Positions 14,582 to 58,472 of a DNA stretch of 64,000 bases are shown here, piece after piece. A program made the position numbers and the translations under genes. Under the pieces are notes generated by a model. That model did no database searches and was not told the origin of the DNA. It saw only the letters and a list, made by a program, of their open reading frames with translations. The stretch is from positions 32,001 through 96,000 of IMG/VR virus record IMGVR_UViG_3300017963_000003; one strand, 5' to 3'. This DNA comes from a virus. How positions within the stretch are numbered: position 1 is the stretch's first letter; each line of letters begins with the position of its first letter.

Positions 14582-15411
14582 TCACTCTCCACGATCACAG
14601 TCGGCCTGTCGAGGCTCGGTTCTGCCTCCACGGACTTGTCCGATGTGACTTGGACCGACACCAAATCAACGTGCTCCACAATGTGCTGCTGAGAATGCTC
14701 GCGCTTCATGTCATGCCGGGCTTGACCGATAGTGCGCGCAGCGACATCCGACAGGGAGTTTTCCTCGATGTCGTCTTTGTTGAGAACCAGAGACTCCAGA
14801 AGGGCCTGGTTGTCCCGACCACCCCAGGACATCATCCGTTGCAGCTCCTCAGGGGTGCTGTCGCACTCGACGTCGCCGTCGTCCTCCATGAAGGCTTCCA
14901 GCTCGTCGGGGGTCATCTCCACGACACCGGTATCGACGGGGCGACCGTCGTCACCAACCTGGCCCGATGCAGCGAGCTGACCCGCCACCTCCTGCTGGGT
15001 ATGGAGCTGTTCGGTACGGTCTTTGATCATCGAGAGGACGTCATCACGCCCAGTCATCACAGAAAGTGGCATGATCTCGTCAGGAGTAGGCATCCGAAGC
15101 AACCCCGTCTCCTCGTCCTCCACCGGACACAGGTTGAGGCCCAACATGCTCACCACCTGGTCTTTCACTATGTCCGCCATCAGCTCGATGTCCTTGTACC
15201 GATCCAAGTCCTCCTTGTTCATCGCCTCAAGCTCAAACACCCACTGGGTATCGTTCATCCCCTTGATACGGGGGTCCCCGATGGGGATCTGTCGCTTCGT
15301 CAAGACCTTGGCCTTGATCCGAAGGCGAGAAGCTATTCGTCGCCAGACGGGGAAGACTCGGTCCCAGTGGGCTTCTCGCCCTCTTCCGAACCCTCCCCGG
15401 AGGATTTTTTT
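14578..15411 (-). CDS. Tail assembly chaperone T segment, C-terminal part of a predicted -1 frameshift G-T fusion
   Basis: The 14578..15303 ORF has only a TTG start; its frame is open upstream to the A AAA AAA heptamer at 15411-15405 in the -1 frame of the preceding gene. Confidence 0.75.
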   Translation of the reverse strand, partial: KKILRGGFGRGREAHWDRVFPVWRRIASRLRIKAKVLTKRQIPIGDPRIKGMNDTQWVFELEAMNKEDLDRYKDIELMADIVKDQVVSMLGLNLCPVEDEETGLLRMPTPDEIMPLSVMTGRDDVLSMIKDRTEQLHTQQEVAGQLAASGQVGDDGRPVDTGVVEMTPDELEAFMEDDGDVECDSTPEELQRMMSWGGRDNQALLESLVLNKDDIEENSLSDVAARTIGQARHDMKREHSQQHIVEHVDLVSVQVTSDKSVEAEPSLDRPTVIVESD

Positions 15412-15869
15412 GCTGCGTCCTGGGCGTCCTCCCTACGCTGTTCGAGAGACTCCCAGAAACCCCACATCTCCTCCAGACGCTCCGGAGGACGCTCCGCCAG
15501 GTACTGCATCAGGTACTCGGCCGCGAAGTACTTCTGATTGTAACGCCCCCGACCATCGACGAGCTGCACGATCTGACGTCCCTCCTCGGTGCTCTCCCAC
15601 TCCTCGCGGAAGAACTCGAAGACAGGAATTCCGTTGATGGCGCGAATGCCGATGGACAGTGTGGGCAACCTCCAGGAAGAAACCGTCGAGATGCGCGACC
15701 CGGTGTTGATGAACGAGTTACGCCAGTTCGACTCTTCCTCCGTCAGCAGACGTATCGTCCACTCACGGCCCATCCACAGGAAAGTATCCTCGATGGTCTC
15801 GCCATCGAGTTCCCGAGCAAGGTCCAGCAACATCTTTTTGGGACTTTGATTGTCGTTTGAAGGCAACAC
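15333..15869 (-). CDS. Tail assembly chaperone G, about 178 aa
   Basis: Start reassigned to GTG 15869 behind a GGAGGAGG SD; the track start at 16031 overlaps the tube gene. Acidic small protein between tube and TMP. Confidence 0.75.
   Translation of the reverse strand: MLPSNDNQSPKKMLLDLARELDGETIEDTFLWMGREWTIRLLTEEESNWRNSFINTGSRISTVSSWRLPTLSIGIRAINGIPVFEFFREEWESTEEGRQIVQLVDGRGRYNQKYFAAEYLMQYLAERPPERLEEMWGFWESLEQRREDAQDAAKKSSGEGSEEGEKPTGTESSPSGDE
15405..15411 (-). other. Programmed -1 ribosomal frameshift slippery site (A AAA AAA)
   Basis: Seven-T run on the + strand; zero frame reads GCA AAA AAA TCC; the -1 frame reads through KILRGGFGRGREAHWDRVFPVWRRIASRLRIKAKVLTKRQ into the downstream ORF. 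Confidence 0.8.
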
Positions 15870-15928
15870 GGCTTTCGCTCCTCCTCCCGCTACGCGGGGT
15901 CTAATTGTGAGTCGCTTTCGCGACAAAC

Positions 15929-23653: not shown

Positions 23654-24040
23654 CTACTCTCCTACGATCAGGACGTACACGTTCGCGTCGAGGACACCAG
23701 GATTGGTGATCTCCAACGCTGTCAAGGTCGCGCCGTTCCACATGATGAAACCGCCCTCAGCGAGGTTAAAGACCTCCGTGCCGCCATTGACCTTGTACGT
23801 GACCGCCTTGTCGGTCCCCACATAGACGAACTTGCCGTCCGCGACGGTACCGAAGTTCACCGGCTGGATACCGGCAGGCGCGATGGTGTACTCGAACACC
23901 ACCTTCTCGGCGTAAGTCACCTCAACGCCAGTGTCAGAGTCGTCAGGGGTCACTTCCGGGGTTCCGATGATGATCGGCGTGGTGGAACCGCCCGGAGAGT
24001 TCGGAAGGGTCATGCGCCCCGTCACCGCCAGAGTTGCCAT
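23654..24040 (-). CDS. Small beta-rich virion structural protein
   Basis: 128 aa, beta-strand pattern, strong SD, within the neck operon. Confidence 0.65.
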   Translation of the reverse strand: MATLAVTGRMTLPNSPGGSTTPIIIGTPEVTPDDSDTGVEVTYAEKVVFEYTIAPAGIQPVNFGTVADGKFVYVGTDKAVTYKVNGGTEVFNLAEGGFIMWNGATLTALEITNPGVLDANVYVLIVGE

Positions 24041-24052
24041 GTCGTGTCTCCT

Positions 24053-24505
24053 CTATCTCGTTTCGGCCAAACCGAAATTCAAACCCACAGCGAGCGCAGC
24101 AGCACCCACAAAACCGACACTGAACCAAAGAATGGGAGATCGATACCACTTCCGCAAAGACTCGATCTCGCTCTCGTAGTAGTCTTGCTGAGCCTCTGTC
24201 ACCGAGACCTGATCGTTGAAAGCCTTTTCCCACTTGCCGGAGATCTTCTCAGTGATCTCTATGTCACGCTTCAGCAGTAACGTGTAGTCCTCGAACTTCT
24301 CAACCTTCAGCTCCAGCTTCGATACCTTGAGACGGAGCGGAGGAAGCTCCTTGAGGTCCTTGAGCATCCGGGTCGCGCTCTCTTCGGGGAACCAGAAACC
24401 CGGATGGCCCTCGTGCTCCAGCTCGACACTCTCCACGTCCTCCGCGAGAACAACTGACGGTGTCAGCAGGGTGATGAAGACGAAGACGAGAAGGAGCAGC
24501 CTCAT
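24053..24505 (-). CDS. Secreted coiled-coil protein with C-terminal TM helix, spanin-like
   Basis: Signal peptide MRLLLLVFVFITLLTPSVVLA, coiled coil, C-terminal PILWFSVGFVGAAALAVGL; no Cys. Confidence 0.6.
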   Translation of the reverse strand: MRLLLLVFVFITLLTPSVVLAEDVESVELEHEGHPGFWFPEESATRMLKDLKELPPLRLKVSKLELKVEKFEDYTLLLKRDIEITEKISGKWEKAFNDQVSVTEAQQDYYESEIESLRKWYRSPILWFSVGFVGAAALAVGLNFGLAETR

Positions 24506-24510
24506 GGCGA

Positions 24511-24816
24511 CTAAAGACCCTTAGGGGCACCGGACGGTGTCGTGTCTATCGCAGTGAACTCTTCCACGATGCGCTCTACGGCATCCAACCGCTCAGAGGC
24601 TTCCTCGTGTTTCCCCTCATCAGCGAGCCTGTGCGCCTGGTCCCAAGCGTCCCACGCCATATCGTACCAGTACCCACCCGTATCGAGGAGCCGGTCCTCT
24701 ATCGCCGCCAGCTCCTCTTTCCAGTAGTGAAGAGAATCCCACGCCAGGTATTCTTCCTGCGCGGTCTTGCTGGCAATACGATAAAGGGAATCATCGCTGA
24801 AAGTGGTATTCCTCAT
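24511..24816 (-). CDS. Acidic hypothetical protein
   Basis: 101 aa, overlap-coupled; carries the RIASKTAQ motif. Confidence 0.65.
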   Translation of the reverse strand: MRNTTFSDDSLYRIASKTAQEEYLAWDSLHYWKEELAAIEDRLLDTGGYWYDMAWDAWDQAHRLADEGKHEEASERLDAVERIVEEFTAIDTTPSGAPKGL

Positions 24817-24817
24817 G

Positions 24818-25168
24818 CTAGTACCTCAGCTTTCTGAACTCTTCGAGCTTCTCCTTCGAAGAGAGACGGTCTACCTCGTCCCGCTCGTTCTTAATCTTCT
24901 CGTTGAGCTTCTCAATGTCTGCATCAATGGCTTTGATCTCTTCCTCTACGTCGCCCTCGCGCTCGCGAATGATGTCGCGCTTCCCTTCGAGACGCGCAAC
25001 CTCTCGCTCGGCCTTGAGCACCTTAACCTTGTGCTGCTGAATGAGGCGCTTCTTCTGATCTCGGATAATGGTCGCCCCGAAAAACGCAGCGAAAAGGAGC
25101 ACGACAGTACCCGCGATCCACTCCCAGTTACGCTTCAACCAGCGCCAAGCTTTCTTCAGCCAAGACAT
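24818..25168 (-). CDS. i-spanin-like protein (N-terminal TM helix plus coiled coil)
   Basis: WIAGTVVLLFAAFFGATII TM segment followed by a long charged heptad repeat. Confidence 0.6.
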   Translation of the reverse strand: MSWLKKAWRWLKRNWEWIAGTVVLLFAAFFGATIIRDQKKRLIQQHKVKVLKAEREVARLEGKRDIIREREGDVEEEIKAIDADIEKLNEKIKNERDEVDRLSSKEKLEEFRKLRY

Positions 25169-25950
25169 CAGCGGTTACGACCAACAGCGTCCTCTGCACC
25201 TTCAAGTCCCTCAACAATCAGTTCCAGCGCGTCCCAGTCATTCAGCATATAGTGCACAGAGTAATCCAGAAGATTCTGCGCGTAAAACAACGCTTCCGGG
25301 GCCGTCAAATTGGCCGTATGCGCGTTCCTATTGATGAATCTGGAAATATAGCTCAAGAGTTCCGTCCAGTCCAAAACCCCAGGGACTCCGCCATGCATAA
25401 GAGCGTCTACGCGATCCTCGTCCATGACAGGAGCGTCCTCCTGCGCCACTCTATCGAGAGACCTTCCACCCTTACGTTCGTGCGGTCGCTGACCGTAGAT
25501 GTCGCTCTGGCAATACGGACATTCTCCGTACTCCTCCAGCTCACCGCTCCACTCCCCGCAATACGGACACCGACGCTCCTCCTCTGACTCCTCGTGCTGG
25601 CGCTCCGCCTCTTCGAGCCAGTCACCCCACGACGAGATGAAAAAACCCTCCGCGTCCGTATACATCAGGGTAGGGACATAGGTATCTCCGGCGTTGAGAT
25701 AAAGGACCTCCTGATCCCTGAGAGGGCCGCCGCTCTCGTACGGCAGCACCTCCACGCCGAAACTCATGACGTCATTCTCGTTCAGGTATTTATCCGCCTC
25801 TTCGAGCGCCGCATGCGGAGGAAGAGCACTCTCCTCGACGATCCCCAGAGCCTCGTTCAACACACGCAACTCATCGCCATGTCCGGCGCGCTTGGGTCCG
25901 TACTGCTTGGCCAGCCGCTTCAACCCGGCATCCTTGATCGCACGTTCCAT
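25168..25950 (-). CDS. Hypothetical protein with YLNAGDTY motif and CPYC-CPYC Zn ribbon
   Basis: 260 aa, translationally coupled to the downstream gene. Confidence 0.7.
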   Translation of the reverse strand: MERAIKDAGLKRLAKQYGPKRAGHGDELRVLNEALGIVEESALPPHAALEEADKYLNENDVMSFGVEVLPYESGGPLRDQEVLYLNAGDTYVPTLMYTDAEGFFISSWGDWLEEAERQHEESEEERRCPYCGEWSGELEEYGECPYCQSDIYGQRPHERKGGRSLDRVAQEDAPVMDEDRVDALMHGGVPGVLDWTELLSYISRFINRNAHTANLTAPEALFYAQNLLDYSVHYMLNDWDALELIVEGLEGAEDAVGRNR

Positions 25951-25953
25951 GAC

Positions 25954-26274
25954 TCAACCCTCCCGAGAACCGGCCTTAGCCATCAGCTTGGCCTTGCTGG
26001 CAAACGTACGAGTAAGAGCCTTGTAGATCAGGCTCGAACACGTACCGAGCGCACCACCGATGAGCAGCTTGTCCGCGAAGGACTCCGGAGGAAGCAGTAA
26101 TCCCCCAACCATGCCCAAGAGAATCGGGATGAACGGAAGGATGCGCATCCCGACATGATGCTTGGTGAAAAACTTCTTGAAGCCCTGCTTGAACGCCTGC
26201 ACGACTCCAGCCACTACCACAGCGAGACCCACGTAAGGGCCATACTCGGTCAGAATGACGATGAACTCTTCCAC
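25954..26274 (-). CDS. Holin-like membrane protein
   Basis: 106 aa with three hydrophobic segments and a basic C-terminal tail. Confidence 0.65.
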   Translation of the reverse strand: MEEFIVILTEYGPYVGLAVVVAGVVQAFKQGFKKFFTKHHVGMRILPFIPILLGMVGGLLLPPESFADKLLIGGALGTCSSLIYKALTRTFASKAKLMAKAGSREG

Positions 26275-26283
26275 GATGTCCTC

Positions 26284-26754
26284 CTAGCCCGACTCGGAGA
26301 CGGTCTCCGACACGAAGACAACCTTGCACCGGAGGGGGGCTCCGCCGCCACAGTTGTTGTAGATGTGCAACGCACGCGCCCGGTTACCGTCCTCCCGAAC
26401 ACGCCAACCATCCCGGACTCGGTCAGCCGGGAAGATCTCCAGGTTGGTAGAACCCTGAAAAACAGTCAGCGGAAACGTAATAGTGTTCGCCGGAAGAGTA
26501 ACCGTCGACCCCTGCTGAATACCCGTCTCGTAGTTCGGGACAGCGTAAGCCTTGGCTGGTTGACCGTAGCCGCCGCCGTAGAAGGTCTTGACGATGACGT
26601 TACCCGCACCAGCCGGAGTCTTCGGACCGTCGTAGAGCGGAATGATGTCGATGGTCAGGTTCTTGATCGGCTCGCTGACAGGGGCATCCGTCACCCTGAT
26701 CTCCTGACCATCAGGGAGATCGATCTCGATCTCTCGCTGCCTGTATCTTCCCAT
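26284..26754 (-). CDS. Hypothetical virion protein
   Basis: 156 aa, first gene behind a class A promoter motif. Confidence 0.7.
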   Translation of the reverse strand: MGRYRQREIEIDLPDGQEIRVTDAPVSEPIKNLTIDIIPLYDGPKTPAGAGNVIVKTFYGGGYGQPAKAYAVPNYETGIQQGSTVTLPANTITFPLTVFQGSTNLEIFPADRVRDGWRVREDGNRARALHIYNNCGGGAPLRCKVVFVSETVSESG

Positions 26755-26854: not shown

Positions 26855-27700
26855 CTAGAAGCGCGCACCCAACTCACGCTCTGCCCACTTCTTCACCGAC
26901 GGGTAGAAACCGTGTCCGAGCAAGTACTCCAGATCTCCCCGCGTGAGCTGCTGCCCCTCGTCGAGATCCCGCAACTCGTCCAACATCGGCCCGGCCTTCA
27001 TCCGGTCCTTCTCCTCGACGTCGTCCCCCACGCTGTTGCAGATGCCCACTACACGCGCCGTGACCTTGTCCTGGGGGTCCATGGGCTCCGCCTCACGCTC
27101 CTCGGCCATCTGCTCGATGGTCTTGCGCGGCTCCGGAGAGGGCTTCGTGAAAGTGCGTCGGTTCTGGAGGTCAGACTGCTCCTGGTGAGCCATGTCGATG
27201 GCCTCCTCAGCCGAGATACCGTACTGAGCACCGAGCTTCTCGTAGTACTCCAAGTACTCCCCCTCGTCCATGAGGACGAGTACCGGCGGACGGCGGTTGA
27301 CCATCTTGCGCAGGTCCGTGGACGCCTTGATGGCGTGGAACGGAACGAGCTGCGTCAAGTTGATCGGCTTCTTCCCCTTCGGGATGAGGATCGACTCGGT
27401 GCGACCCACGATAAGCTCGAACTGGAGCGACACCTGAGTGTTACTGCGGTTCTGCACGTAGACGTCGCGCTCCTCACGGAAGTACTCCGTGAAGTTGGTG
27501 ATGATCGGAACCCTGTTACCTTGACCGTTCATGACAACCTCCCTGGGATCTCTCGCCAGTTTGATGATGAAAGGCTCTCGCTTCACCACGACAGCCTTCC
27601 CCTTCTTGACCAGTTTTCTCGCCCTGGCGGGATGGGTGTACGACAGGACGGACCCGGACGTGTCCAAAACCGGGACCCGCGAACCTGTCGTACGTACCAT
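26855..27700 (-). CDS. Protein with N-terminal PLMP/RRXRR-type domain fused to an uncharacterised capsid-associated protein
   Basis: VPVLDTSGSVLSYTHPARARKLVKKGKAVVVKREPFIIKL matches the IscB/RRXRR N-terminal consensus. A second in-frame ATG at 27532 has its own GGGAGG SD. Confidence 0.75.
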   Translation of the reverse strand: MVRTTGSRVPVLDTSGSVLSYTHPARARKLVKKGKAVVVKREPFIIKLARDPREVVMNGQGNRVPIITNFTEYFREERDVYVQNRSNTQVSLQFELIVGRTESILIPKGKKPINLTQLVPFHAIKASTDLRKMVNRRPPVLVLMDEGEYLEYYEKLGAQYGISAEEAIDMAHQEQSDLQNRRTFTKPSPEPRKTIEQMAEEREAEPMDPQDKVTARVVGICNSVGDDVEEKDRMKAGPMLDELRDLDEGQQLTRGDLEYLLGHGFYPSVKKWAERELGARF

Positions 27701-27702
27701 CA

Positions 27703-27811
27703 GTGACCTTCAGGTGTGCCAGGGTGTTACCCTACCTCCCGCCGAAGCGGGGTTCATCGGATTAGGCGGCGGCGCGCGATGCGCCGCCGCCTGCACCTGC
27801 TTCCACGTCAC
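27703..27811 (-). ncRNA. Candidate structured RNA element between the capsid gene and the PLMP-domain gene
   Basis: Perfect 12-bp stem 27764-27792, cUUCGg hairpin 27738-27751, 5-bp hairpin 27721-27733, closing stems 27711-16/27794-99 and 27703-07/27807-11. Confidence 0.5.
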
Positions 27812-27814
27812 GCG

Positions 27815-29077
27815 CTACTTCTGGCCCTTGGCGCAGGAGCGAGCGTTGGCAATCGCGAACCCGACCATCTCGATGAAGGCCCAGCCCTTGACCGTCTCCT
27901 GGTGGCTGTACTTGTTGTACGGCTCGGAGAACAGCTCGATCCTGACACCCATCTCGCCCATGTAATCCGCGCCCGTCGTGGCATAGAAGCTTCCGGGCTC
28001 GATCACCTCTTCAACCCCCGTGCCTGCGGCGGTCAGAATCTGGGCGTTCAGGACGTTGCCGATGTAGCCCGCGAGGATCAACTCGCGCTCCGTCACCGGG
28101 TCCACGCTGGTCGACATGGTCTTGACGATGTCGCTCAGCTCGGACCGCGAGATCAGGAAGTTCTCGACCATCAGACGATGGCGCTCGACCTGGAACCGGA
28201 CGTCCTCGAAGGCGCCGATGCCCAACGTCGCGAACGTGGTCACGGCGTTGTCGGTCTGCGCGGCCTCGTCGATGAGGCTGATCGCAGCCTTGTCCTCCTG
28301 AAGCTCGATCTCCTGACGCGCGGTGTCCTGCGCCCGGTCGAGGACATCGAAGTTCATCTGGTAGATGTCCATGATGTCGATGGCCGGGAAGCTCGTCACC
28401 TTCCACTCGGGCGGGGTGATCCACTTCGTCTTGATGCGGCTCTCGGGGGACTGACCGTCCTGGCCGATGACCCACGCCGTCGAACGGATGTCCAGCGGGA
28501 TACGGAACAGCTCGGCCTGGGCCAGCTTCCGAACCCGGTAGATCTTCCGCGCGAAGCCCTCGTAGTCGAGGATCGCCTTGATCGGGAGCGCCAGCTCCTG
28601 ACCGACGATGTGGAAGCCCTGTCCGGTCGGGTCGGTGAGCGCGGCGGCGAGAATGTCGCGCCGAGCTTCCTTGCTGATCGAGGTCTCCGTGTCGGGACGG
28701 TAGAAGGAGAGCGCCTGAGCGTTCTTCTTCGTGACCTCGTTCATCAGCTGATGGATCTGCGTCATCGCCTCGCGCTTGTCGTGCGCGTTGATCTCACCCC
28801 TGCCGTCGAACATGCGACGGTCGGTGCTGCTGGCGGTGGCGCGACGGCTCGACGGAAGGTCGTACCGCTGCGGGTTGAACGTGCCGTTGCCCTCGAAGAG
28901 GCCCTCGTCGCGCTTGTTGGCGAAGCGGCCCGGACGTACGGCCATGCGGTCACGCGGCTGCTCGGAAGCCTCGCGACGGGGAGCGCGCTGTCGCCGGGTC
29001 TGGTCGCCATTCCTCTGCGCGGACCGCGAGGGGCCGGGGCGACGATTCTTGCTGATGCTCTTGAACGGATTGGACAT
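27815..29077 (-). CDS. Major capsid protein (HK97 fold)
   Basis: 420 aa in the order protease-scaffold-decoration-MCP; LALPIKAILDYEGFARKI...SFPAI...DVLDRAQD.ARQEI..QED pattern; strongly C/G-biased codons. Confidence 0.9.
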   Translation of the reverse strand: MSNPFKSISKNRRPGPSRSAQRNGDQTRRQRAPRREASEQPRDRMAVRPGRFANKRDEGLFEGNGTFNPQRYDLPSSRRATASSTDRRMFDGRGEINAHDKREAMTQIHQLMNEVTKKNAQALSFYRPDTETSISKEARRDILAAALTDPTGQGFHIVGQELALPIKAILDYEGFARKIYRVRKLAQAELFRIPLDIRSTAWVIGQDGQSPESRIKTKWITPPEWKVTSFPAIDIMDIYQMNFDVLDRAQDTARQEIELQEDKAAISLIDEAAQTDNAVTTFATLGIGAFEDVRFQVERHRLMVENFLISRSELSDIVKTMSTSVDPVTERELILAGYIGNVLNAQILTAAGTGVEEVIEPGSFYATTGADYMGEMGVRIELFSEPYNKYSHQETVKGWAFIEMVGFAIANARSCAKGQK

Positions 29078-29903: not shown

Positions 29904-31871
29904 CTACTGGCCCTGGACCCCGCCGAGACGTCCGAGTCTACGTCCCAGAAGAGTGCTTCCACCAATAGCGCTACGAAGATCAGCGACACCTGAAGATTGC
30001 GGAGGGCTGGATGCAGGAGCCCCATCGACCTCGAAATTGCCCTCGGCGGCTTCCCTACGAACCAGAGAAGCGCGACGAGAGGTACGTCGCATATCAGTCG
30101 CCTCGGCAGATCCCCTCACAGCAACCGGAGCGAGGTTCCTGAGGTCCTCCTCCGCGTCCTTGAGGTACGAGGCGTCCTTGGCCATCAGGTCGGCGGCTTT
30201 CTCCAAGAGAGCCTCCACGAACCTGTCATGACCTTCTGCGGTAATCAGCTCCGTCAGATCGACGGCGGCGGAAACGTCCATACCCGAATAGACGTCACCG
30301 TTGGCGAACTCGATGTCACCGGACTCCGCCGACAGGACGTCGACGGCGGCAACCTTGATCGGGTGCTCCTCATGGTTGAGGCGCATCCGCGACGACGCCA
30401 CCCGGACCGCACGAGCGAACTTCCGGACGAAGTCCTCCTTGGCCTCAGCGACAGCCTTCTTCGTCCGCTCGTCGTAGAGCTTCTTGAAGTTGGCGTGCGC
30501 CGAACGAATCACGTCATCTCCGCCCGAGAGAACATCACCTTCGGAACCGTTGTGCTGCTCCTGGGCGTTGGTGTCGGCGTCGGAAGTGGAGTCCATGGAC
30601 GGCTTGGAGGGCTTCTTCTCCTCGATGACGTTCTCGGCTTCGTCGAGGATGTCCTTGGTCTCGCCCTCAGCCTTCTTGCGAGCTTCGAAAGTAAGGCGCG
30701 CTCGCCGCAGGACAGCCCTGCGCTCACCGCTCAGGGTGCGCGGGGTCACCTTGTCGGGCTTCTCCCTGGTATCAACCTCGCCACCGGGAAGCGCCGAGTC
30801 CGGATCGGAGTCGTCGTACTCCTGACGGTTGACGTCCTCGGCGTCCGCGAGGATGCCCTGATTCTTCGGCTCGACTTCCTCGGCGCTGTTCAGCTCGATG
30901 TCATCGTCGACACCGGCAGCCCGCAGCATCTTCGCGTTACAGAACTCAGCGGCCTTGCTAAACCCCTGGTAAACAGCGAGCCCGTACACACGGTTGGCCA
31001 AACGCCGAAGAGCTTCGGGGTCGTTGCGATACTTGTCAGCAGGAACTGCGTGGAAGATCGCGCCATGATCCTCGTGATGCGCGACCAGCGTACGGCTTCG
31101 GGTGATGGCGATCTTGATCTTCTTCGCCCTGGCAGGCATCGTAGTGTCCTCGTGAGCCATCGAACCCTCCCCGGCATCCGAGATGCCCATCTCCTCCGCT
31201 GAAGGAGAAGTGCCGGCTTCCTCTGCGCGCTCCTGAAGCTCCTGGATGTCTCCGTGCTCCTGCTCCTGCGCACGCCGCAACGTGGCCTCGCGCTCCTTGG
31301 AGAGGTCCGGCTTGTCGTCCTTCTTTTCCTCGGGCTTGTCGTCCTTCTTTTCCTCGGGCTTGTCGTCCTTCTTGGGAGGCTTCTCCTCGCCGGACTCGTC
31401 CTTCTTGGGAGGCTTCTCCTCGTCGGGCTTTCCACCCATCGAGGGCACCGGCTTGTCGTCGAGCTTGACCTCGATGGGATCGCCGCCACCCATCTCCTTG
31501 ACCTTCTCCGTGATCGGAGACGAGGGACCATCGGTAGCCTTCTCCTTGACGTCCGCCAGCTCGTCTTCCAGAATCTCGGCCTCCTCAGCCCTCTCGATCT
31601 CTTCCTTGATGATTCCCTCGGTCTTCAGGAAGTCGACGATCACGTTGTACGCCGCGTCGGCATCGGGAGCCTTCTCCAGCTCCATGAGAACCTTCTCGAA
31701 CCCCGGAGGGGCGGACATGGCCGTCCGGTTCAATACCGACTTACGAACGAGATCCATGGTCTCGGATTCGATGCGCTCCTGGTCTGATGCCGAGAGGTTG
31801 ATCGTGCCCTTGGCGTGAAGATCCGCCACGGTCTTGAAGAGCTTGAATCGTTCGGTAAACGGCATTGTCAT
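29904..31871 (-). CDS. Scaffold-like acidic head assembly protein
   Basis: 655 aa, highly charged low-complexity sequence, between protease and decoration/MCP. Confidence 0.6.
   Translation of the reverse strand: MTMPFTERFKLFKTVADLHAKGTINLSASDQERIESETMDLVRKSVLNRTAMSAPPGFEKVLMELEKAPDADAAYNVIVDFLKTEGIIKEEIERAEEAEILEDELADVKEKATDGPSSPITEKVKEMGGGDPIEVKLDDKPVPSMGGKPDEEKPPKKDESGEEKPPKKDDKPEEKKDDKPEEKKDDKPDLSKEREATLRRAQEQEHGDIQELQERAEEAGTSPSAEEMGISDAGEGSMAHEDTTMPARAKKIKIAITRSRTLVAHHEDHGAIFHAVPADKYRNDPEALRRLANRVYGLAVYQGFSKAAEFCNAKMLRAAGVDDDIELNSAEEVEPKNQGILADAEDVNRQEYDDSDPDSALPGGEVDTREKPDKVTPRTLSGERRAVLRRARLTFEARKKAEGETKDILDEAENVIEEKKPSKPSMDSTSDADTNAQEQHNGSEGDVLSGGDDVIRSAHANFKKLYDERTKKAVAEAKEDFVRKFARAVRVASSRMRLNHEEHPIKVAAVDVLSAESGDIEFANGDVYSGMDVSAAVDLTELITAEGHDRFVEALLEKAADLMAKDASYLKDAEEDLRNLAPVAVRGSAEATDMRRTSRRASLVRREAAEGNFEVDGAPASSPPQSSGVADLRSAIGGSTLLGRRLGRLGGVQGQ
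31311..31422. repeat. Coding tandem repeats (24-bp unit about 2.6 times; 33-bp unit twice) encoding KKDDKPEE/EEKPPKKD
   Basis: cttgtcgtccttcttttcctcggg at 31311 and 31335 with a partial copy at 31359. Confidence 0.85.
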
Positions 31872-57360: not shown

Positions 57361-58472
57361 TCTTTCCAGATCTGAACGTTCTTCTGGATTCTAGGGTTCG
57401 CACCGACCTTCAAGGCCTTTTCAGCCTGCTCGACGGCAGCACCGAACATCCCCAAATGGTTGTACGTCATGGACAGGAGGTCGTAACGATCTACCTGATA
57501 GATCTTGGGGTTCACGAACAGCTTGCACTGAGGCTGATCCATCTGGACGCACCTCTCTAACCAGACTCGTGCCTCGTGGTACCTTTGCTGCTTGTACGCT
57601 AGATTTCCGAGATAGTAGTACGCTTCCGCCATCTCCGGATACTCCTCGATGGCCAAAACATACTGGTTCCGGGCAGCGTCGATATCCCCCAGGTTACTGT
57701 GACACGTTGCCGCACCCACCCTGGAGTGCCAGCGCTCTTCATTCCATACGCTGAACTTCAAGCACTCTATGAAGGCCCGATGCCCCTCGTCCCACCGACC
57801 GTTCTCTTTGTAGGCCGTCGCCAGGTAGAACCAGCTCCGAGCGTCGTCTCCGTCGATACGAAGTTTCTTACGGAACGCTTCGATGTTGGCCTTTGAGCGC
57901 TGTCGGTCACGCTCCGCTTTCGACTCAGGGTCTTGGTCGCACTTCCGGTGCTCTACCCTGACGAATTTTTCTTTGTACGTCGACTTCGTCACCGGAAGAT
58001 TGTGGATAGGGTTCTTGTACAGAACATCTGAACGCATCAACCTCACAGAACCGAAACGCGTCTGGGGTACCCCTTCTTCGTCTGGCTCGAAGAGCACAAG
58101 CACCTCCACAGAGTCACACCCTGCGCGCTCTGCTTCTGTGATGGCATCTGTCAGCCCAGATGCGTTGAGAACTGTCTCGTGGCCATCCAGGACCAAACGC
58201 CAGGAGTCTGGATGGCACTCACGGAAAACCTTGTTCCGGGCATTCGAGAAACCCCAGTCTCCCTCACCGTTGAGGGGTCCGCAGAGTTCTAGCTCTTCGG
58301 TGAGGTGAATGTCGACGAGCGTATCCGCCCACTTCTCCGCGATTTCTCTCGTTCCGTCTGAGGATGCTACATCGAGCCCGATAACGATTTCGTCTACGTG
58401 CTCGCGAACCGCCTGAATGGTGCGCTCCAGGGTGCGCACCTCGTTCTTCACGATCATCGCCAGTGAGAGCAC
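57336..58472 (-). CDS. Family 2 glycosyltransferase with TPR repeats
   Basis: LSLAMIVKNE...DEIVIGLD..SSDGT.EIA...FSNARN...WRLVLDGHE, then TPR repeats (RSWFYLA, EAYYYLG). Confidence 0.88.
   Translation of the reverse strand: MLSLAMIVKNEVRTLERTIQAVREHVDEIVIGLDVASSDGTREIAEKWADTLVDIHLTEELELCGPLNGEGDWGFSNARNKVFRECHPDSWRLVLDGHETVLNASGLTDAITEAERAGCDSVEVLVLFEPDEEGVPQTRFGSVRLMRSDVLYKNPIHNLPVTKSTYKEKFVRVEHRKCDQDPESKAERDRQRSKANIEAFRKKLRIDGDDARSWFYLATAYKENGRWDEGHRAFIECLKFSVWNEERWHSRVGAATCHSNLGDIDAARNQYVLAIEEYPEMAEAYYYLGNLAYKQQRYHEARVWLERCVQMDQPQCKLFVNPKIYQVDRYDLLSMTYNHLGMFGAAVEQAEKALKVGANPRIQKNVQIWKECLEERSV

Follow-up and report, generated by a model that had tools for sequence, protein, structure and literature searches.

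A nuclease-free PLMP domain fused to a capsid-module protein in a family of uncultured phages, and the conserved tandem hairpins that may be its RNA partners

Descriptions of the PLMP domain have so far been confined to the RNA-guided nucleases IscB and IsrB, in which it is an accessory domain. In IsrB, it binds the tandem 3′ hairpins SL7 and SL8 of the ωRNA; SL7 carries a Shine–Dalgarno (SD) sequence, for which the authors suggested a part in controlling IsrB expression (PMC9581776). The PLMP domain of IscB likewise recognizes the terminal hairpins of the ωRNA (PMC9640706). Besides contacting RNA, the domain packs onto RuvC and TI in these proteins, which gives it a protein–protein role as well (PMC9581776, PMC9640706). 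Our full-text literature searches (PLMP together with phage, and RRXRR) returned no description of a PLMP fusion that is free of a nuclease. Here, we describe such a fusion, encoded directly behind the major capsid gene of a virus, and discuss the conserved RNA hairpins that accompany it.

The locus belongs to IMG/VR record IMGVR_UViG_3300017963_000003, a complete virus record of 192,260 bp with terminal repeats, and the window analyzed here is the 64,000-nt stretch that spans bases 32001–96000 of this record. A first-pass annotation, made from the letters alone, had described an IscB-type N-terminus that runs in frame into an unrelated 225-aa protein with its own SD, and this is what the sequence contains, with the motif GGGAGG placed 5 nt ahead of ATG 27532 (Table 1). 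The capsid gene directly upstream is matched by tblastn to capsid genes in 319 phage records. Its product matches phrog_2522 and the capsid genes of cultured phages only from about residue 91–94 onward; the first ~90 residues are rich in Arg and Gln and unexplained, possibly forming a propeptide or a scaffold-like extension. In relatives, the PLMP gene likewise sits in the head module, directly ahead of the head–tail genes. Two genes upstream of the capsid gene, positions 29904–31871 (-) encode a 655-aa acidic protein with KPEEKKDD-type repeats, and in the records of Lauda and pEa_SNUABM_22 the gene at the equivalent position is annotated as 'ATPase'. Positions 23654–26754 (-), downstream of the PLMP gene, hold small genes; the product of one is a membrane protein that resembles holins (phrog_1299, E 0.002), and others have signal peptides or transmembrane segments. 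Lying between the head and tail modules, these genes may form a lysis cassette.

Table 1. Features of the PLMP gene, its surroundings and the second hairpin site, in window positions
Feature	Positions	Strand	Basis or remark
ORF of the predicted long isoform (PLMP domain, linker and conserved body)	26855..27700	-	281 aa; ORF list, sequence
PLMP (RRXRR N-terminal) domain, residues 9–54	27539..27676	-	PF14239 match, structural match
ORF of the predicted short isoform (body alone)	26855..27532	-	225 aa; public gene call P0001 in the window
Internal SD, GGGAGG, 5 nt before ATG 27532	27538..27543	-	sequence
Major capsid protein gene, directly upstream of the PLMP gene	27815..29077	-	phrog_2522, E 1.7e-58
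HP0, 12-bp G+C hairpin just past the capsid stop codon	27765..27793	-	RNAfold, intergenic regions of 24 loci
Site 1, tandem-hairpin leader	27714..27758	-	alignment A5; covariance model R1, 61.4 bits
HP1, 5-bp stem with UUCG loop	27738-27751	-	AGG follows at 27735-27737
HP2	27721-27733	-	4–5-bp stem in the alignment, UGGCAC after it
Site 2, second tandem-hairpin copy	15861..15905	-	R1, 14.4 bits; sequence
Putative tail-assembly chaperone gene, start GTG 15869	15333..15869	-	assigned by position

The identity of the N-terminal domain is confirmed by both sequence and predicted structure: it is a genuine, nuclease-free PLMP domain of the IscB/IsrB type. Residues 9–54 match positions 1–46 of the 174-position Pfam profile PF14239 (RRXRR) with an E of 3.6e-10 and 40.4 bits, above the gathering cut-off of 25 bits, and this is the only RRXRR match across the 192,260-bp genome. 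In PHROGs, the same residues align with the start of an IscB-like family named 'HNH endonuclease', and a profile of the phage family finds the PLMP domain of TbaIscB at an E of 3.5e-9 and other IscB chains near 1e-4. An AlphaFold (AF2) model of the 281-aa protein was computed from 38 family members (mean pLDDT 89), and its residues 7–56 have the beta-beta-alpha-beta-beta fold of solved PLMP domains. With Foldseek and VIA-align, its best matches were PLMP domains from solved complexes of IscB and IsrB (Z 6.0–7.6 overall): 50 residues superpose on 9k30_A with Z 7.4, an rmsd of 2.6 Å and 44% identity, 48 residues on 8dmb_P with Z 6.6 and 2.3 Å, and 49 residues on 9liq_A with Z 6.0 and 2.1 Å. The eponymous P-L-M-P of strand 2 is absent and is replaced family-wide by (V/I)LSY(T), and the basic helix (PARARKL..GKA) is kept across the family. 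The proposal from the letters alone of an IscB-type N-terminus with PLMP changed to VLSY is thus borne out by the HMMER and fold comparisons. Searches for the domain elsewhere stayed within the family: tblastn against GenBank phages gave no match, and a word-index search for close PLMP relatives with other architectures returned family members only.

Nothing that would make this protein a nuclease follows the domain, in agreement with the initial description. Beyond profile position 46, no RuvC-I, -II or -III motifs and no Arg-rich bridge helix were found by Pfam, PHROGs or fold, the part past PLMP has no Pfam or PHROG match to HNH and no TAM-interacting domain, and neither of the two predicted models (the 281-aa protein and residues 62–182 modeled alone, pLDDT 91) contains an RNase H-like fold. 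Pfam returned nothing for the body and PHROGs only weak matches to families of unknown function; residues 62–182 have no PDB neighbor above Z 4.0, the C-terminal helical part has generic helical matches only, and a search of the ESM Atlas gave hypothetical viral clusters only. Residues 62–182 do resemble uncharacterized proteins of 200–245 aa from four cultured jumbo phages, PaBG, Motura, BcepSaruman and phiRSL1 (TM 0.56–0.68). Comparison by hhalign with the post-capsid genes of phages Lauda and pEa_SNUABM_22 gave no similarity.

The fusion is widespread. A word-index search found 43 homologs, and HMMER found 1134 at E ≤ 1e-3, with 133 cluster representatives at E ≤ 1e-30. At the DNA level, we compared 39 loci, of which 33 come from IMG/VR, one is Rctr197k and five are on metagenome contigs. 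In 38, PLMP and body share one reading frame, down to 36% protein identity, and the RRXRR segment still opens members whose linkers are up to ~100 aa longer. The one locus with an in-frame stop between the two parts is L050, where this single codon separates a PLMP ORF (L050:2225-2437) from the body (L050:2438-3268); a naturally split form, readthrough and an error in assembly are possible explanations. By mean pairwise identity in the family, the mid domain ranks first (0.58), followed by PLMP (0.50) and the C-terminal parts (0.36–0.38). The codons of the invariant PLMP residues V11, P24, R28 and P43 differ synonymously in 0.69–0.81 of pairs; the PLMP segment lies at 0.5–0.8 and the gene-wide mean is 0.57. 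Residues that stay invariant while their synonymous sites are saturated point to a segment that is translated and under purifying selection. The homolog search and the check for stops or decay called for at the outset therefore support, by comparison of sequences, a PLMP segment that is conserved and probably translated rather than decaying; public gene calls of 210–255 aa reflect callers choosing the internal ATG.

This internal start is itself conserved. Nearly every locus has a GGAG-type motif 5–9 nt ahead of the ATG at the junction, including those with a different linker peptide; in L021 no internal start was found, and in L032 it is doubtful. In the close clade, the 13 bases that encode DPRE are invariant, and codons 51–54 show synonymous-difference fractions of 0.23, 0.28, 0.32 and 0.06 against the gene-wide mean, which indicates constraint on the nucleotides themselves. 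For the upstream start, loci use ATG, GTG or TTG at a constant distance from the domain, with a weaker, AGG-type site, and in ~40% of homologs the internal start is the one that gene callers take. The most economical reading, and a likely one on these patterns, is a minor long form from ATG 27700 and a major short form from ATG 27532. Two N-terminal isoforms had been thought possible from the window alone, and both the internal SD and ATG across clades and the suppressed synonymous change favor them.

Upstream of the long ORF, the capsid stop codon (27815–27817) is followed by a 114-nt spacer with three hairpin elements, HP0, HP1 and HP2. HP0 differs in sequence among relatives, and the hairpin itself is always present (RNAfold, 24 loci); it may act as a terminator or stabilizer. 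HP1 and HP2 form the tandem-hairpin leader that we call site 1. Across relatives, the 5-bp stem of HP1 has a C-G pair at its base, is capped by a UNCG or GNRA tetraloop and is flanked by AAC (5′) and AGG (3′); the C-G base and the 3′ flank combine to an SD-like GGGAGG. The unpaired flanks of the hairpins (AAC, AGG and UGGCAC) are conserved. In an alignment of 12 distinct sequences (A5), 94% of cells are paired and five pairs show compensatory changes; none of 500 shuffles was as good, and sliding the partner columns left ~50% paired. Distant clades keep the layout of hairpin, AG(G) and hairpin with different stem sequences, some with inserted hairpins. Rfam returned no family, HEARO included, on the leader (E ≤ 10) or on nine related loci (E ≤ 1).

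Several loci depart from this compact arrangement. In L025, L027, L028 and L029, which represent distant clades, the leaders extend ~200 nt upstream of the PLMP start and hold five or six hairpins, the extra ones lying between the HP1-AGG-HP2 pair and a second HP2-like hairpin; each may form a larger structured RNA. At L026:1442-1515, an inserted tRNA gene (Rfam, 47 bits) separates the capsid and PLMP genes, and the L045 clade has an extra 191-aa gene at this place. In Rctr197k, the PLMP domain is diverged and the tandem-hairpin motif is not recognizable. A long-range helix that would pair the start of the intergenic region with the SD and start region was considered and rejected, its duplex energy differing significantly from shuffles in only 3 of 21 loci, with p=0.18 in the window.

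Searching the genome with the covariance model R1 gave one strong match, site 1, and one weaker match, site 2, which lies at the start of another gene. Here, an HP1 stem identical to that of site 1 is followed by an SD run rich in purines, and a mini-hairpin with a GAAA cap directly adjoins GTG 15869, placing a conserved structure at the ribosome site. The element also begins the homologous gene in six related genomes (R1 27 bits in one), where the HP1 stems covary, reading CCCGC, CCCGG and CCUGCU with matching partners, and in some genomes HP2 is identical between the two sites. The gene itself has no PHROG match. It is placed between two phrog_985 paralogs and the tape-measure genes, and by this position we consider it a putative tail-assembly chaperone gene and a candidate second target. 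A generic HP1 pattern is not enriched genome-wide (5 matches against 3.1 expected by chance), which argues for two real copies rather than a dispersed motif. Two further HP1-like hairpins with AC...AG flanks, at 58259-58278 (-) and G000:C1:140249-140266 (-), were rejected, since they lie inside coding sequence and their number is at chance level. In two cultured phages with related capsid genes and without the PLMP gene, no significant tandem-hairpin match was found.

These observations can be combined in a translational switch, to which we assign a probability of about one half. Translation from ATG 27700, with its weak ribosome site behind a structured leader, would yield the long form as a minor product, and the strong ribosome site at ATG 27532 would yield the 225-aa body alone as the major product. 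The PLMP domain of the long form would then bind the HP1/HP2 operator, much as PLMP binds the SD-bearing terminal hairpins of ωRNA. At operator 1, about 19–62 nt ahead of the long-form start, binding would limit synthesis of the long form (autoregulation); at operator 2, which coincides in part with the ribosome site of the putative chaperone gene, it would act in trans. The proposal builds on the phage element being a pair of tandem hairpins with an SD-like sequence, the same logic as in the ωRNA–PLMP pair. We infer the steps from conserved hairpins to binding by PLMP and on to repression, as we do the sign of regulation and the part played by the body. The covarying leader and the second copy at another ribosome site lend circumstantial support to the idea, raised in the first-pass annotation, that the domain contacts RNA encoded just upstream. 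They also narrow it: the regulated targets are likely to be the long isoform itself and the tail-assembly gene, rather than translation downstream of the capsid gene in general.

Two copies per genome, and the absence of the motif from the two cultured relatives that lack PLMP, count in favor of an operator bound by this domain. Counting against it are the replacement by LSY of the PLMP motif, which contacts RuvC and RNA in IscB, a leader without detectable Rfam ωRNA homology, and the position of the hairpins behind highly expressed structural genes, where they could work in cis without any protein. At site 1, moreover, the hairpins end ~19 nt before the start and leave the weak SD uncovered, and any repression would have to work through steric or standby effects. 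The diverged PLMP domain of Rctr197k, with no motif beside it, and the missing internal start of L021 also weigh against the switch.

The main rival, which we regard as possible although rather unlikely, takes the PLMP domain as functional in another way. It would be a protein–protein or DNA-binding adaptor on the minor isoform of a head-assembly or virion protein, and the hairpins would be independent cis elements that follow the two structural genes with the highest expression and serve as ribosome standby sites, processing sites or mRNA stabilizers. The known packing of PLMP on RuvC and TI would suit such an adaptor, although what the family has kept is the basic helix, and what it has lost is the RuvC-contacting motif. 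The place of the gene in the head module, directly before the head–tail genes in relatives, and a body whose structural neighbors are uncharacterized proteins of cultured jumbo phages also fit this reading. Both hairpin sites do come after abundant structural genes, as independent cis elements would; however, the conserved unpaired flanks suggest recognition by a factor, and the two-hairpin module occurs at only two genes in each genome, with no match in the examined relatives that lack PLMP.

A reduced RNA-guided system, in which the leader would be a miniature ωRNA that guides the body to a nucleic-acid target, is far less probable. A PLMP domain with a structured RNA directly upstream of its gene does recall OMEGA loci, as do the ~200-nt leaders with five or six hairpins in distant clades; yet a variable, guide-like segment is missing, as are a nuclease or RNase H fold and a HEARO match, and in the clade of the window conserved structure spans only ~45 nt. 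Least credible is the dead remnant of an inserted IscB or HNH homing endonuclease, in frame by chance, with only the 225-aa protein made: the frequent choice of the internal ATG by gene callers and a weak upstream start, often GTG or TTG, would fit it, but the comparative sequence data already contradict it through the frame kept in 38 of 39 loci to 36% identity, a PLMP segment second in conservation only to the mid domain, residues invariant despite synonymous-site saturation, and a start codon and AGG-type SD held at constant spacing upstream.

Returning to the proposed switch, its origin and purpose can be sketched more tentatively. The descent of the domain from OMEGA, as put forward in the first-pass annotation, is one candidate, and a PLMP domain of phage or of older origin is the other. 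The PLMP domain and an SD-bearing hairpin might have been captured together, or might share ancestry with the 3′ end of ωRNA, and might now serve as a trans-acting switch by which a two-isoform capsid-module protein limits its long form and gates the tail-assembly chaperone, thereby linking the production of heads to that of tails throughout a large, uncultured family of jumbo phages; we consider this possible but doubtful. The switch, if real, would be a new class of translational regulator of phage late genes and would bear on the origin of the partnership between ωRNA and protein. A phage family of 133 clusters that keeps a nuclease-free PLMP domain beside conserved hairpins suggests in any case that the domain can act as a self-standing module. 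With ~55 aa and ~45 nt, it would offer a natural minimal system for studying PLMP–RNA recognition, and a compact hairpin-binding tag could serve as a tool.

Among known proteins, IF3 N-terminal domains are the next Foldseek matches after the IscB and IsrB chains. They have a similar small alpha/beta fold, but the match is weak (E 0.17) and without a counterpart at the sequence level, and IF3 is not a member of the family; a remote relationship between PLMP and IF3 has been proposed (PMC9581776). The PLMP domains of OMEGA IscB and IsrB (9K30, 8DMB, 7UTN, 7XHT) are homologous to the phage domain in sequence and fold, and in both cases the domain stands at the extreme N-terminus. Tandem hairpins just ahead of the coding region, one of them SD-like, are also common to both. 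In contrast to IscB and IsrB, the phage protein lacks RuvC, bridge helix, HNH and TI, carries LSY in place of PLMP, and has its PLMP domain fused to an unrelated phage protein. Its leader of ~45 nt has no guide, pseudoknot scaffold or Rfam match, unlike ωRNA, and a second copy of the hairpins occurs at another gene, unlike in OMEGA loci.

In function, the closest parallels may be found among the autogenous and trans-acting translational repressors of phages, such as T4 RegA, T4 gp32 and the MS2 coat protein with its operator hairpin. By analogy, the proposed logic is the same, in that a phage protein would act on an RNA hairpin near the ribosome site of its own and of another late mRNA; the phage PLMP fold is unrelated to these repressors, however, and the operator that it is predicted to bind is a tandem hairpin. 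In gene organization, lambda C/Nu3, T7 gene 4A/4B and lambda S107/S105 are in-frame nested genes with an internal start. The locus described here resembles them in having one frame, two conserved starts and a shorter product with a strong ribosome site, and differs in that both products are predicted and that the extra N-terminus is a nucleic-acid-binding domain of the kind found in transposon nucleases.
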